The position numbers were made by a program, and so were the translations under genes. Below the pieces are notes generated by a model. It searched no databases. It saw only the letters and a list, made by a program, of their open reading frames with translations, and was not told the DNA's origin. A stretch of 64,000 bases of DNA from Spirochaetota bacterium (GTDB taxonomy: Bacteria > Spirochaetota > GWE2-31-10). Below are positions 12,418 to 63,420 of this stretch, piece by piece. The DNA lies in assembly GCA_045133795.1 (NCBI GenBank), contig JBGUUT010000108.1, forward strand, positions 2,499-66,498, read 5' to 3'. The stretch's first letter is position 1, and every line of letters starts with the position of its first letter.

Positions 12418-13530
12418 TTAAACACTCATTGGCATCATAATATAAATATAATCAGGATTGTCTTCTTCCAATATGACAATTGTACTGGAAGCATTATTAA
12501 ACTTAAATATAAGATTATCATTTTTTATAACGCTTATGACATCTGTTATATAAGAGAAGTTAAATGCGATTTTGATATCATCACTGTCATACTCAATATC
12601 GATTGTTTCTTCTCCGTCTCCGTAAGTCATATTTTCACTATAGATTTTCATCGTATTGCCAGACAGTGATATTATAACTTTGTGAGTATCTTTTTCTCCC
12701 ATTACACTTACACGATCTATAGCATCTTTAAAATCTTTTCTGTTAACTTTGAAGCTTTTTGCTGAATTAGCAGGAATTACAGATTGATAACTAGGAAAAC
12801 CTGAATCTAAAAGATTTGAAATAAAGAAACAGTTATCAATATTAATAAATACTTCTTTTTCATTAAGACCTACTTTTAGTTCTGTTTTATCATCTCCGGA
12901 ACACAATTTTAAAGCTTCTTGTAATATTTTAGGAGGTACGACTACTTTAGAAAAAGTTTCTTTTATTTCCACGTCTTTTTCTATTTTAGCAAGTCTTTTT
13001 CCATCAGTTGTAACCATTCTTAGTTTATTATCTTCATATTCAAACAAAGTACCTATTGCAAATTTTCTATTGTCATTTTGTGATACCGCAAACTTTGTTT
13101 TGTTTATCATATCAGCAAAAATGTCTTTAGGTACGTTAAAATAATTGATATTTGAAGTATCTAAGATTTCAGGAAATTTATCTGGCGAAATACCTTTGAG
13201 ATTGTATTTTAAAGTGTTTTTTCCTTTTGCTTTTATTTGAATATTTAAATCACTATCGCTTTGTATTTCTATTTCATCTGAAGGTAATTTTCTTGCTATA
13301 GAATAAAGCTTGTTTGAGTTTACACAGATTTCTCCTTCTTCTTCTACATCAGCTCCTATTTCTCCATAGAAACTTATTAATGTATCGCAAGCTTTTATTG
13401 TTAATTGATTGTTTTGTGCTTTTATATGAATGTTTGATAATATAGTTATACTGTTTTTTGAAGATATAACACTTTCACAAATACCAAGAATTTTGTTTAG
13501 ACTTTCAATTGAACAGAAAAATTTCATCAT
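12418..13530 (-). CDS. dnaN: DNA polymerase III beta subunit (sliding clamp)
   Basis: 370 aa, three-domain clamp length, abuts recF start. Confidence 0.9.
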   Translation of the reverse strand: MMKFFCSIESLNKILGICESVISSKNSITILSNIHIKAQNNQLTIKACDTLISFYGEIGADVEEEGEICVNSNKLYSIARKLPSDEIEIQSDSDLNIQIKAKGKNTLKYNLKGISPDKFPEILDTSNINYFNVPKDIFADMINKTKFAVSQNDNRKFAIGTLFEYEDNKLRMVTTDGKRLAKIEKDVEIKETFSKVVVPPKILQEALKLCSGDDKTELKVGLNEKEVFINIDNCFFISNLLDSGFPSYQSVIPANSAKSFKVNRKDFKDAIDRVSVMGEKDTHKVIISLSGNTMKIYSENMTYGDGEETIDIEYDSDDIKIAFNFSYITDVISVIKNDNLIFKFNNASSTIVILEEDNPDYIYIMMPMSV

Positions 13531-13710
13531 AACTCCTTTAGTTATTAACTTTCTCTATTATTTCTAAATTTATTAAATTTTAGTAGTAGAAGTAATAGGG
13601 GGTGTTTATATGTTTATAACACAGTTAAATTGTTTTATATAGCGATTTTACAGTTATGAAAACTTGTTCATAAGGTTTTCTGGTTATTAACGTTATAAAC
13701 ATAAAAATAC

Positions 13711-13749
13711 TTTTTAACATTTTATTCTATCTTATTAAACAACTTATCA
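13711..13749. repeat. 39-bp direct repeat, copy 1 (second copy at 14205-14242, 37/39 identical)
   Basis: tttttaacattttattctatcttattaaacaacttatca versus tttttaacattttattttatcttattaacaacttatca. Each copy lies just downstream (minus-strand sense) of a copy of the dnaA 3' end. Confidence 0.8.
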
Positions 13750-13770
13750 CTAATATTTTTGTCTCAATAT

Positions 13771-13803
13771 CTTCTTTTATTCTGTTTTCAATATTAATAA
13801 CTT
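13771..13803. repeat. Perfect 33-bp duplicate of the dnaA 3' coding end (identical to 15888-15920)
   Basis: cttcttttattctgttttcaatattaataactt is present at both sites. The copy at 13771 is non-coding and lies 2.08 kb away from the real gene end. Confidence 0.9.
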
Positions 13804-14040
13804 TATTTATCTTCCTTATAAAGCATTAATAATGATAATTGTTTCTTCTTTTATAATACGGTTTATGTGTAATTGATTGTTGTAGTTATTTTCAAATATC
13901 ATTATATATCTTTTGTATATTTTTTGCTTATAAGGTTAATAAAAGACTATGTAAATAAAGAAAAACGGCATTTCTTATATAAAAGAGATGTCGTTTTATC
14001 AAAATAATATATAGAGGTGAAAAATAAGTGATAGTGCGGA

Positions 14041-14140
14041 TATAAAAAAGCGTCTGAGGGGGCGGGCCATTCCCCATAAAGACGGTAGCATAAAGCCCTT
14101 AATCTCTCGGCTGCCCTTTCCGATGTTCCAGACGCTAATT
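14041..14140 (-). ncRNA. Candidate small structured RNA (GC-rich element with 8-bp closing stem and 3' T-run on minus strand)
   Basis: Positions 14048-14135 are about 57% GC in an AT-rich intergenic region. agcgtctg (14048-55) pairs with cagacgct (14128-35); internal G/C runs (ggggg, cgggcc, cccc, agccc/ggct, gccc) can pair. On the minus strand the element is followed by tttttt; a GATAAT-like -10 lies about 10 nt upstream (14150s). Confidence 0.35.
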
Positions 14141-14204
14141 AAATATTATCATATAATAATGGAAGAAAAGATAATTTTTTTTTCTGTTATTTAAGGAAAG
14201 ATAG

Positions 14205-14242
14205 TTTTTAACATTTTATTTTATCTTATTAACAACTTATCA
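14205..14242. repeat. 39-bp direct repeat, copy 2, preceded by partial dnaA-end copy ccttcttttattct (14256-14269)
   Basis: See 13711-13749. A 14-bp match to the dnaA 3' end at 14256-14269. Confidence 0.8.
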
Positions 14243-14356
14243 TTGTTGTTAAATTCCTTCTTTTATTCTACCAATGCTATATGCTTGTGTATAGAAGGCA
14301 ATAATAATTGGCGTTCTCGAATTAATTAGTAGAAGATAATTCTATAAAACCAGTTA

Positions 14357-14974
14357 TTAATTAACAACAAGTGCAGAGAAGGTGTCTACGATTTTTTTTA
14401 CAAAATTAGAAACATTACTGTCTGTGAAAGTCCCCAAGTCCTGTGGTTCAGGAACATTATCAATTCGCTTCACAGTTGCCTGTGGATGATTTTTATTATA
14501 AGCGTCGATAATCGAATTAAAACCACGAAGTAGAAAAACATAAGCATAATACGCATCGTTAAGATGTTTTACGAGTTTTTCAAAGTTTGGGTTTGTAACT
14601 TCATTTGCTTTAGTCGTAACCGTATCATAAGAGTTTTTCGCATTTTGAAATTTATTTTCAATAGCTACTGAAAGTCCCAAATCCTTAAAATCGTTTGAGG
14701 TTTTATACTTATTGTAAAATCCAACAAGTAAGCTTGAAGTCCGCTTAAACTCTTCGAAGAAAGACTCATAGGAATCTTTTATACTTTTCTTGTCAGTTTC
14801 GATGTCTTTCTCTGATTCGGTTAATGGGGCTAAAAGATAATTACTTAGCAAGTTAACAAAAGAAAAATCCAACGCAAAAAAGCTATTCTTTAAGTCCGCT
14901 ATGTCCTTTTGTAGGTCGGTTTTTATCTCGTCTTCAAAGAATTTGTTAAGTGCAAAAATTTTTTCAAAATCCAT
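14357..14974 (-). CDS. Hypothetical protein (island ORF-B, 205 aa, predicted helical)
   Basis: Long ORF with noticeably higher GC than flanking genes and no recognisable motif. Located between dnaA and dnaN. Confidence 0.4.
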   Translation of the reverse strand: MDFEKIFALNKFFEDEIKTDLQKDIADLKNSFFALDFSFVNLLSNYLLAPLTESEKDIETDKKSIKDSYESFFEEFKRTSSLLVGFYNKYKTSNDFKDLGLSVAIENKFQNAKNSYDTVTTKANEVTNPNFEKLVKHLNDAYYAYVFLLRGFNSIIDAYNKNHPQATVKRIDNVPEPQDLGTFTDSNVSNFVKKIVDTFSALVVN

Positions 14975-15053
14975 AATGATTTCCTCTTTTTCTAATTTAA
15001 ATATTATAATCTTCCAATATTTACCCCTGTTATTTTAATGGTACCAGAATGCG

Positions 15054-15065
15054 TTGTTGCAACAA
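15054..15065. promoter_or_regulatory. Perfect 12-bp palindrome TTGTTGCAACAA in the ORF-A/ORF-B intergenic region (candidate operator)
   Basis: gcgTTGTTGCAACAAtttg is exactly self-complementary. It lies about 90 nt upstream of the ORF-B start. Confidence 0.35.
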
Positions 15066-15207
15066 TTTGTCAAAGGCGTTACCTTCTAGGTTATTCTGTC
15101 TGAAGTAACATAAAATTATATAACTTTGGAAAAACTCAGGCAATATATGGATTGTTTCTGCTAATTGTACGTTTCTAAATAGCCATGTAGTACTTTTATT
15201 TTTTTGT

Positions 15208-15816
15208 TTATGACAAAGTAAGTGAATCTACTCCGGGAATAATATATTGTAAGCAATCTTTGCCTGAATCGGGGGCTTTATATGCCTTAAAACTACCACC
15301 ATTTTTTTGGGCAATTTTTTTATAAGCTTTGTTAGCAGGATTTTCTTCTAAAGAGTCCCATTTTATACAAGTGTATTTTTGTTTTAATTCAGGAATAAGG
15401 TTAGCTAAATCACATGCAAGTGTAGTGTAAGGGTGGTCAATGTCAAAAGAAAACATTTTTATACCAATTATTTCAGTTCCTGAACAAATAATGGCTACGA
15501 ATCCTTTTAAGTTTTTTGTTTCTGTGTCTATATTGAAAAATGACTTTATTGTTCCACCTATAGACTTTATGGATAAAGAAATTAAATCGTACAAAGTAAC
15601 ATGCTCATCTTCTGGCTCAATGCTTGAAATAAGGTATTTGTATTTTGTATCCATCAATTCTTTAGCTGGTGTTTTTAAGATATTTTCTACTGCCGGATTC
15701 TTTTTAAGATAATCATCTAGTACTTTGATTTCTGCTCTTTCTAGCACTTCTGTAATTCGATGACTTTTTCCAAGATAAGCAAAGAATTGTTCTACTATTT
15801 TTTCTTCTTTGGTCAC
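15208..15816 (-). CDS. Hypothetical protein (island ORF-A, 202 aa)
   Basis: ORF with good RBS (GGAGG upstream of ATG) and no recognised family. Immediately downstream of dnaA. Confidence 0.4.
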   Translation of the reverse strand: MTKEEKIVEQFFAYLGKSHRITEVLERAEIKVLDDYLKKNPAVENILKTPAKELMDTKYKYLISSIEPEDEHVTLYDLISLSIKSIGGTIKSFFNIDTETKNLKGFVAIICSGTEIIGIKMFSFDIDHPYTTLACDLANLIPELKQKYTCIKWDSLEENPANKAYKKIAQKNGGSFKAYKAPDSGKDCLQYIIPGVDSLTLS

Positions 15817-15879
15817 TTTTAATCTCCTCCCAAAAAAAAAGAAAAGACATTTTTTACAGAAAGCACTAAAAACAATTGA

Positions 15880-17343
15880 CTAACCACCTTCTTTTATTCT
15901 GTTTTCAATATTAATAACTTCAGATTTTAATTTTTTATCATCATTCATACATTTTTTTATTTTGTTTGCAGCATGAATGATGGTTGCATGTTCTTTATTG
16001 AAATATTTTCCAATTTGATTTGTTGATAATCGAGTGTATTGTGTGCTCAAATACATAGCTATTTGTCTTGCGATAGCAATTGATTGTGTGCGTTTTTTAC
16101 CTCGTATGTCTAAAACGGTTAAATCATAGTAATTCGCAACTATTTCCATTATCTTATCAATAGATATATTTCCTACTGATTTAACAGCAGTTATTTTATC
16201 TTTTAAACATTTATTGATAACATCAATTGTTATTTCTTTTATATTCATAATACTTGTATAAGCCAATAAATCCCTGAAAGCACCTTTTATTTCTCTTATG
16301 TTACCGGAAATATTTGTACAAATATATTCTATATTTTGAAGATTTAAGTTCATGTTATTTTGTTGAGCTAAATCTTTTAATATAGCCATCTTTAATTCAT
16401 AATCAGGTTGTTTTAATTCTACGGTTGTCCCCATACTGAAACGACTTTTAATTCTTTTTTCAACATCTTTAACTTTAGATATAGGTTGATCGCAAGTTAT
16501 AACGATTTGTGTTTTTCTGTCATAAAGTTCGTTAAACGTATTAAAAAGCTCGTTTAAACAAGCACCTTTTCCGGATAAAACTTGAAAATCATCAAGAAGT
16601 AAAATATCTAGTTTGCGGTATTTTTCTCTGAATATTTTAGGTTTATCAGAGTCTTTATGTCTGATTGAATCTAAAAACTCATTTAAAAAATTTTCAGATG
16701 TAACATATGTAATTTTCTTTTGATTGAATAATCTTTCCGCACGTTGTTTTATTGCTTTTATAAGATGAGTTTTTCCGGTTCCGCTTTCGCCCCATAGAAA
16801 AAGAGGATTTCTTTTAGGATTACCGGGTTCTTCGGCTATTGTCTGAGCTAGTCTGAAAGCGTATTCGTTTGTATCATCTGTTAAAAACGAATCAAACGTA
16901 CATTCTTCATCATTATCTGAAAAAACTCTGTCTGTTTGTTCTTCTTCAACAGGAAGAATTTCTTCTGCTTTTATATCAATAATCGGTTCTATTTTCTGAG
17001 GTTCTTCGACTAATTGTGTTTTAGGCGGAATTACAATTTTTTCTTCAATGATTTCTTTTTGTTTTGGCTGCTCTTTTTTTTCTATTTGAACTGCATCACA
17101 TCCTGAATCAACGATAATATTGATGTTTATTTTCTGGTTCCAACATTTTAAGAGTATATTTTCAAATGTTTTTTTGTAGTTTGAAAGAATAAAATCTTTT
17201 AAGAAATCGTTAGGAGTGACCAAGGTTAAGCTTTTGTCACCTTCTGAAAAAGAATAATATTGCAATTGTGTTAAAAACATACTTGGAACATCTTGTTCCG
17301 ATATAAAATTTTGAATTCCTGTCCAGAAAATTGAATAATCCAT
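15880..17343 (-). CDS. dnaA: Chromosomal replication initiator DnaA
   Basis: 487 aa. AAA+ Walker A GESGTGKTHL, sensor motifs, C-terminal DNA-binding domain with the DnaA signature region (..IGKYFNKEHATIIHA..). Confidence 0.95.
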   Translation of the reverse strand: MDYSIFWTGIQNFISEQDVPSMFLTQLQYYSFSEGDKSLTLVTPNDFLKDFILSNYKKTFENILLKCWNQKININIIVDSGCDAVQIEKKEQPKQKEIIEEKIVIPPKTQLVEEPQKIEPIIDIKAEEILPVEEEQTDRVFSDNDEECTFDSFLTDDTNEYAFRLAQTIAEEPGNPKRNPLFLWGESGTGKTHLIKAIKQRAERLFNQKKITYVTSENFLNEFLDSIRHKDSDKPKIFREKYRKLDILLLDDFQVLSGKGACLNELFNTFNELYDRKTQIVITCDQPISKVKDVEKRIKSRFSMGTTVELKQPDYELKMAILKDLAQQNNMNLNLQNIEYICTNISGNIREIKGAFRDLLAYTSIMNIKEITIDVINKCLKDKITAVKSVGNISIDKIMEIVANYYDLTVLDIRGKKRTQSIAIARQIAMYLSTQYTRLSTNQIGKYFNKEHATIIHAANKIKKCMNDDKKLKSEVINIENRIKEGG

Positions 17344-63377: not shown

Positions 63378-63420
63378 AAAAAAGCCTGCGAAAAAAATAT
63401 TTCAATCGCAGGCTTTTTTA
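63378..63420. terminator. Bidirectional terminator between 63095 ORF and murA
   Basis: agcctgcga ... tcgcaggct stem flanked by A-run and T6. Confidence 0.75.

Follow-up and report, generated by a model that had tools for sequence, protein, structure and literature searches.

An 88-nt G+C-rich element lies between dnaA and dnaN of an uncultured, Treponema-like gut spirochaete (Spirochaetota) whose nearest relatives come from gut metagenomes. It is tentatively read here as an intrinsic (Rho-independent) terminator, or 3'-end structure, of unusual length, which would shield oriC and dnaN. The 64-kb stretch of DNA that was analysed is referred to as the window, and the diverged copy of the element found in closely related strains as the sister allele. 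According to the favoured reading, the element would be transcribed as a strand-specific RNA and would fold into one irregular hairpin of about 24-26 bp (helices P1, P2 and P3) with a conserved bulge of 9-12 nt on its 5' side. The basal G+C-rich stem is directly followed by six U, where transcription would end. Transcription of dnaA would thereby be stopped in the sister allele, and that of dnaA and two inserted genes in the window, in both cases ahead of the oriC spacer and dnaN. The element came in with island 2, an insertion of small size that is specific to these lineages and lies at the 3' end of dnaA. Both the transcription of the element and its activity in termination are what we infer from these features.

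The element is the most G+C-rich 88-nt stretch of the window and the only one of at least 55% GC (56.8%, against a mean of 31.5% for the window and about 20% for the flanks). The 8-bp stem, the length of 88 nt and the GC content of about 57% given in a preliminary description of this DNA hold, but the position given there, 14048-14135, had to be shifted one base to the right, to 14049-14136 (Table 1). The perfect complementarity of the outer arms and the minus-strand TTTTTT end noted at the same time are both present in the sequence. On the plus strand, AGCGTCTG at 14049-14056 and CAGACGCT at 14129-14136 constitute a perfect 8-bp inverted repeat closing the element; read on the minus strand, its 3' arm passes into UUUUUU (14049-14044). 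Only two repeats of this type (perfect, 8 bp, five G/C or more, loop of 40-100 nt) exist in the window, compared with 0.35 +/- 0.57 in composition-matched block shuffles. Outside coding sequence, the element is the only G+C-rich long-range stem of this kind. An extended -10-like string, TGaTAATAT, is located at 14151-14143 and ends 6 nt upstream of the element on the minus strand. This string is window-specific: it overlaps the downstream end of the block at 14151-14174 by one base and is missing from the sister allele. Sequence and covariance-model searches detected no second copy of the element in the 64-kb window. Four independent metagenome contigs (L012-L015) carry the element with 100% or 99% identity in the order dnaA-ORF202-ORF205-element-dnaN, which shows that this order was not created by assembly. 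In public assemblies, the exact DnaA protein of the window is recorded in 65 blocks.

Table 1. Position of the element, its parts and the surrounding features in the window, with the evidence for each.
Feature	Position	Strand	Evidence or remark
Element: 88-nt long bulged hairpin (P1, 5' bulge, P2, P3, apical extension)	14049..14136	-	GC maximum, MFE and consensus folds, sister homologue
P1 5' arm, AGCGUCUG	14129..14136	-	perfect complement of 14049-14056; CGUCUGG identical in sister allele
P1 3' arm, CAGACGCU, abutting the U-tract	14049..14056	-	CAGACGCUUUUUUAUAU the same in both alleles
Remainder of U-tract, and tail	14043..14048	-	UUUUU (14048-14044) after the P1-terminal U at 14049 (six U in total), then A at 14043
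Conserved 5'-side bulge, GAACAUCGGAAA	14117..14128	-	only two transitions relative to sister allele
P2 5' strand, GGGC	14113..14116	-	pairs with GCCC inside 14060-14067, two registers possible; compensatory C-G for A-U in sister allele
P2 3' strand region, GCCCGCCC	14060..14067	-	predicted folds
P3 5' arm, CCGAGAGAU	14102..14110	-	two transitions relative to sister allele, pairs kept (C-G/U-G, G-U/A-U)
P3 3' arm, GUCUUUAUGG	14074..14083	-	within invariant block CUACCGUCUUUAUGG
Apical region	14084..14101	-	about 9-13 nt inserted in the window copy only, folding into a mini-hairpin of 3 bp (14095-14097 with 14087-14089)
Upstream block, TTATCTTTTCT..TATTATAT	14151..14174	-	common to sister allele
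dnaA 3'-end copy 1, in live dnaA (15880-17343)	15888..15920	-	repeat search
dnaA 3'-end copy 2: core AGAATAAAAGAAGG, old stop GGAATTTAA, duplicate of first ~45 nt of oriC spacer	14204..14269	-	island 1/island 2 border
dnaA 3'-end copy 3	13771..13803	-	33-nt perfect repeat of 15888-15920; island 2/oriC spacer border
Island 1, ~1.6 kb, with ORF202 (15208-15816) and ORF205 (14357-14974)	14270..15887	-	absent from sister allele
Island 2, holding the element	about 14256-13804	-	between copies 2 and 3 of the dnaA 3' end
Ancestral dnaA-dnaN spacer with TTATAAACA-type DnaA-box-like repeats	13531..13770	-	93% identical in sister lineage, alignable to relatives

The sister copy is predicted to form a single long hairpin (-24.8 kcal/mol, z = -3.8) followed by U6. 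This hairpin comprises P1 (CGUCUGGA/UCCAGACG), a 9-nt 5' bulge, P2 (AGGGAA/UUCCCU), P3 (GUCG-AAAGAU/GUCUUU-UGGC) and a 9-nt loop. The window copy shares this architecture, to which extra G+C-rich loop sequence on the 3' side and an apical insertion of 9-13 nt are added. Its folding energy is no better than that of shuffles (z = -0.9 for the minus strand and -1.1 for the plus strand), and it still forms one hairpin when the upstream flank is included in the fold. The consensus structure contains 26 pairs, two of which show compensatory changes (C-G/A-U in P2, G-C/A-U beside P1) and four of which show one-sided changes that preserve pairing. Paired cells amount to 95.7%, against 49-60% with slid partners. 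Of the homologues and covariation that had first been called for, a homologue with pair-preserving changes was indeed recovered, whereas the covariation, matched by 54 of 500 shuffles and drawn from only three distinct sequences, is not significant. Nested helices, proposed initially for the interior, appear in the predicted folds; the pseudoknots proposed with them find no support. A third variant (L087, L090, L092) carries an uncompensated U-to-C change in P1.

Several G-U pairs on the minus, dnaA-sense strand would be A-C mismatches on the opposite strand. These one-strand-only pairs, together with the U-tract, point to the dnaA-sense strand as the folded strand, in agreement with the strand initially chosen for the RNA. 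The U-tract is kept in the sister allele and is one base shorter in the L087-type variant. An alternative short local hairpin at the 3' end is weak (-10 and -4 kcal/mol), so termination at the U-tract would need the long-range P1, with the whole element serving as terminator hairpin. A terminator/antiterminator switch, in which the 3' arm CAGACG would pair with an inner CGUCU, was considered and rejected, as the local hairpin is weak and both alternatives share the U-tract.

Along the minus strand, the locus reads dnaA (17343..15880), ORF202 (15816..15208), ORF205 (14974..14357), the element, a DnaA-box-like spacer and dnaN (13530..12418), beyond which come recF, dciA, rpmH, rnpA, yidD and yidC. 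The dnaA-dnaN gap measures 216-254 bp in relatives whose DnaN is 89-90% (L003, L004, L082/L083), 64% (L005-7) or 55% (L008-10) identical. No element-like sequence or terminator-like site was found in the gap of these relatives (L003-L010, L082/L083). Since their spacer is short and plain (~240 bp), the window holds about 2.1 kb of inserted DNA. The placing of the element inside an insertion, made from the window alone, is thus borne out by its absence from relatives. Several TTATAAACA/TGTTTATAA repeats resembling DnaA boxes are carried by the spacer at 13531-13770 and are recognisable in the relatives with 90% DnaN identity; from its position and motif, this spacer is probably oriC. Two independent assemblies with the exact DnaN of the window (L001, L002) end within one base of the dnaN start codon, breaks that are probably due to co-occurring strains with different island alleles upstream. 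As a consequence of these breaks, the 370-aa DnaN (MMKF..) is on record only from edge contigs.

The inserted DNA consists of two neighbouring insertions at the 3' end of dnaA: island 1 with the ORFs and island 2 with the element. The last 33 nt of dnaA before the final GG* (15920-15888) are repeated perfectly at 13803-13771, and a 13-nt core, AGAATAAAAGAAG, is present three times (15900-15888, 14269-14257 and 13783-13771; chance expectation 0.03). The ancestral stop in copy 2, GGAATTTAA, reads ..G I * and is the same in L003, L004 and the sister allele. Island 1 is absent from three loci, namely L011, whose DnaN is 99% identical to that of the window, and L080 and L081, the contigs of the DnaA cluster members P0127 and P0129. 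At these three loci, a diverged copy of the element begins 41 nt past the dnaA stop codon. The sister-type allele is carried by L011, L080, L081 and L084-L093. Island 2 already existed in the common ancestor of both sister lineages, and island 1 was added later in the window lineage. Domain searches detected no integrase, transposase or recombinase domain in the neighbouring ORFs.

The cargo of island 1 received no usable annotation from Pfam, PHROGs, PADLOC or NCBIfam. ORF202 has no match in Pfam, NCBIfam or PADLOC and a single weak PHROG match (phrog_30343, E = 0.0016), and of its 14 homologues only the one from 'Treponema sp.' bears a name, the others being unnamed proteins from metagenomes. 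The structure model of ORF202 is weak (pLDDT 64) and its top PDB matches are all GNAT acetyltransferases (E about 1e-3, TM about 0.4), so that it is probably a divergent GNAT-fold protein. With a gap of 63 nt and a GGAGG ribosome-binding site, ORF202 is apparently co-transcribed with dnaA. ORF205 has 25 relatives among 1.84 billion representative proteins and is modelled with confidence as a long-helix bundle (pLDDT 83, pTM 0.81), for which there is no significant fold match in the PDB.

Exchange between lineages is visible at the same place. A comparison of dnaA in the window and in L080 gives 0.5% differing sites over nt 1-1005 and 14% over nt 1006-1464, which places a sharp recombination breakpoint at about nt 1005. 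The sister lineage (DnaA P0133, N-terminal part 92% identical; L084-L093) has a dnaA 3' part and an island 2 identical to those of L080. The L080-type strains are therefore recombinants, to which the sister lineage has supplied the 3' end of dnaA together with island 2 and the spacer. The reciprocal mosaic is represented by DnaA P0132, in which a different N-terminal part is joined to a window-type C-terminus. Between the window and L084, identity is 88.5% for dnaA and 92.3% for dnaN, and third positions diverge by 22-24%. The 3' end of dnaA and the islands are swapped between lineages as a block. One sister-lineage contig (L092, 6676-6863) diverges about 80 nt downstream of the element into an opposite-strand ORF fragment that matches PLDc_2 and the NgoFVII restriction-endonuclease PLD domain; either the locus has received further cargo there or the contig ends in a chimera. 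On either side of the element, the locus is prone to insertions.

Between the window and the sister allele, 67 of the 77 aligned bases of the element are kept (87%), compared with 47.3 +/- 2.5 in shuffles, and three indels account for a total size difference of 16 nt. Three blocks of 12-17 nt, CGUCUGGAACAU, CUACCGUCUUUAUGG and CAGACGCUUUUUUAUAU, are identical in both alleles. Upstream of the element about 35 nt can be aligned; downstream, a stretch of 80/184 nt is unalignable, after which homology (83%) is found again toward the oriC spacer. The element is the sole conserved feature of island 2. The adjoining 3' part of dnaA differs between the alleles at 33% of third codon positions, and the identity excess of the element over this 22-33% third-position divergence appears moderate and is partly inflated by the gapped alignment. 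The two forms are best seen as orthologues that diverged along with the two sister lineages, the only ones from which the element is known.

Such a pattern could also be left by a functionless relic, a terminator or end piece surviving from an integrated element that has decayed; the similarity between alleles would in that case be due to common descent only. The very narrow distribution, the moderate identity excess, the P1-breaking polymorphism and the 16-nt size difference agree with this explanation. However, the island DNA around the element can no longer be aligned, whereas the element itself retains three blocks of 12-17 nt without a single difference, and the substitutions in its interior helices all keep pairing. 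Moreover, the window copy has become more G+C-rich and longer with its architecture retained. A mere relic is accordingly considered very unlikely.

A second hairpin of island 2 is window-specific and without conservation in the sister allele. On the plus strand, 13962-13998 reads AACGGCAUUUCUU-auauaa-AAGAGAUGUCGUU followed by UUUAUC; it pairs fully on that strand by means of G-U and looks like a plus-strand terminator. Its only Rfam match is a weak one to the terminator part of GibS (E = 2.1). It overlaps a 44-codon ORF starting with TTG (13873-14007), the product of which would have a hydrophobic N-terminus and a basic tail.

The reading of the element as a terminator is suggested by its G+C-rich stem GCGUCUG/CAGACGC followed by U6 on the dnaA strand only, to which CGUCUGGA/UCCAGACG followed by U6 corresponds in the sister allele. 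In the window, transcription of dnaA-ORF202-ORF205 would meet it as its first hairpin with a U-tract, ahead of the oriC spacer. The start of the element 41 nt past the dnaA stop in the sister allele, its conserved sequence and pairing, the G-U pairs of a single strand and the lack of a conserved promoter point the same way. Hairpins followed by U6 serve as terminators elsewhere in this genome, e.g. a minus-strand one at 63380-63415 whose stem measures 8 bp. The other terminators of the window have stems of 6-11 bp and loops of 3-14 nt and the element is far longer. A simple consensus terminator scan does not report it: with 72 nt between its arms, the element departs from the compact, short-loop form. 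This length speaks against a terminator function, and so do other observations. The bulge and the half-loop block CUACCGUCUUUAUGG are kept more than a plain terminator needs, the relatives do without any terminator between dnaA and dnaN, and the P1-breaking variant with a shorter U-tract segregates in the sister lineage. In addition, the window copy folds no better than shuffles and the covariation falls short of significance.

The structured interior, with its near-invariant bulge and apical block, is what chiefly speaks for a rival reading as a small structured RNA, either a gene of about 90 nt with its own promoter or a stable 3'UTR-derived RNA processed from the dnaA/island transcript. P1 and U6 would then be its built-in terminator, and the bulge and the apical block may act as protein- or RNA-binding surfaces. 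The ends of the element pair, and its entire length is structured and conserved beyond the basal stem. Its unpaired segments are near-invariant (GGAACAUYGRAAAGGG and the loop CUACC), nothing else is conserved in island 2, and no ORF is common to the alleles. The structured interior of 56-72 nt is found in no other terminator of the window. An excess of GC over AT-rich surroundings is typical of structured RNAs, and the element shows this excess over its flanks. A start at about 14136 would be set by the TGaTAATAT string in the window, and TATTAT is present 7 nt ahead of the first base of the element in the sister allele. On the other hand, these -10-like strings differ in sequence and distance between the alleles, which are offset by a 10-nt indel, no -35 is found in either, and promoter-like matches in this 20%-GC DNA are fewer than expected from shuffles. 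The discrete RNA gene with its own promoter advanced in the preliminary description finds no support in this comparison: the -10-like string of the window is lost in the sister allele through that indel, and the element begins there 41 nt after the dnaA stop, at the place expected of a terminator. The complements of the conserved bulge and apical block occur within the window at chance level only, so that no target stands out, the covariation is not significant (see above), no Rfam family matches, and the searches recovered homologues from two sister lineages only. A small structured RNA is thus regarded as unlikely, if a serious candidate. A more specific form of it, in which a new lineage-restricted structured RNA (self-standing, of about 90 nt, or 3'UTR-derived) would couple dnaA expression or origin firing to a cargo-acquiring locus, appears quite unlikely.

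Family searches agree with the original statement that the element could not be matched to a known family. Rfam 15 gave no match for the whole window at gathering thresholds and chance-level matches only around both alleles at E <= 10; no tRNA, rRNA or Rfam family at gathering score was found anywhere in the 64 kb, and ARAGORN detected no tRNA or tmRNA. BLAST of phage and plasmid collections returned no match. An exact-pattern scan of a viral contig collection returned 0 matches with window-specific 18-20-mers and 4 + 59 seed-only chance matches with the blocks common to both alleles. Two scans of a metagenome collection with the shared blocks gave 0 matches each; as neither known allele was matched, this collection is evidently without the species. 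Among the genomes of 185,579 species, one per species, the shared blocks gave a single chance match in a GC-rich coding region of an unrelated MAG. The contig scans demand exact matches to the conserved blocks, and distant relatives could escape them. A covariance model derived from the two alleles detected no additional copy, whether in the window or among 27 related loci; its best further hit was an ordinary terminator, and no copy of the element lies elsewhere in 192 kb and 115 kb of related loci. A full-text literature search yielded nothing relevant on RNAs between dnaA and dnaN in spirochaetes.

Several other identities were considered and rejected. A dispersed repeat of the MITE or REP type is at odds with one copy in 64 kb and no further one in 192 kb and 115 kb of related loci. 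The possibility that the element is a fragment of a protein-coding gene was raised at the outset as what would undo its description as an RNA, and a comparison of the frames of the two alleles indicates that it is non-coding: the frame that they partly share lacks a start codon in the window, and a difference of 5 nt in length interrupts it in the 3' part. A small protein or type I toxin was discarded as the ORFs through or beside the element differ between alleles. A retron msr/msd was suggested by TTAGCG at the 5' end; no reverse transcriptase accompanies it, and the sister allele does not conserve the motif.

A function at the DNA level, as a hairpin or cruciform site for recombination or attachment or as a replication-linked site beside oriC, would fit a locus that has undergone repeated insertions and lineage exchange, with three copies of the dnaA 3' end and a recombination tract starting at about nt 1005 of dnaA. 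In another strain the PLD-nuclease fragment lies about 80 nt downstream, so that cargo flanks a constant element on either side. None of the three kinds of junction falls at the element, however: copy 2 ends about 70 nt upstream and copy 3 lies about 245 nt downstream. The element is single-copy, which leaves no attL/attR pair, and no integrase or transposase gene is present nearby. It contains neither an integron attC consensus nor a DnaA-box-like motif, and the empty sites of L003, L004 and L082 hold nothing like it. The preservation of G-U pairs on one strand and the conserved U-tract are RNA-level signatures. A DNA site is thus highly improbable, and the att site put forward as an alternative in the preliminary description has to be abandoned, since the border repeats are those of the dnaA 3' end and the single-copy element sits at no junction.

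If the element is only a terminator, its import is small: it would be an oversized case of an insertion at the dnaA 3' end supplying its own stop before the origin. If it is a stable RNA with a partner, an RNA beside oriC would be worth testing; we know of no small RNAs described in these uncultured gut spirochaetes. The more useful lead is probably the pattern of insertion and exchange at the locus level and not the hairpin. If this pattern is general, the dnaA-oriC junction would be a hotspot for cargo insertion and swapping between lineages; among the cargo at this locus are a GNAT-like protein, a protein modelled as a helical bundle and a nuclease of the PLD family.

Compared with known systems, the element resembles intrinsic terminators in its G+C-rich stem and U-tract on the strand of the upstream gene and, like them, would act unidirectionally. 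It differs from them in that its stem closes a structured interior of 72 nt (window) or 56 nt (sister allele) instead of a loop of 3-8 nt, and in its conserved bulge and apical sequence. Bacterial small RNAs may derive from 3'UTRs and share the terminator of an mRNA, e.g. those of the CpxQ/SroC type. Like these, the element would form the structured tail of an mRNA whose terminator it shares, and would expose conserved single-stranded segments; neither in sequence nor in Rfam is it related to them. With integron attC sites and REP/MITE sequences it has in common an imperfect palindrome in the range of 60-140 nt beside gene cassettes, with terminal inverted repeats. It departs from attC sites by its ends, AGCGTCTG/CAGACGCT in place of RYYYAAC/GTTRRRY, and by the absence of an integron integrase, and from REP/MITE sequences by the lack of target-site duplication and its single copy in the window and all related loci. 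Finally, the islands recall integrative elements inserting at gene 3' ends (tRNA/tmRNA-type att), as they are flanked by direct repeats of the dnaA 3' end and rebuild the end of the gene (C-terminus KEGG in the window, ancestral KEGI). In contrast with such elements, the islands are without integrase and only 0.3-1.6 kb long, the GC-rich element is not the repeat, and the exchange between lineages resembles homologous recombination beginning inside dnaA.
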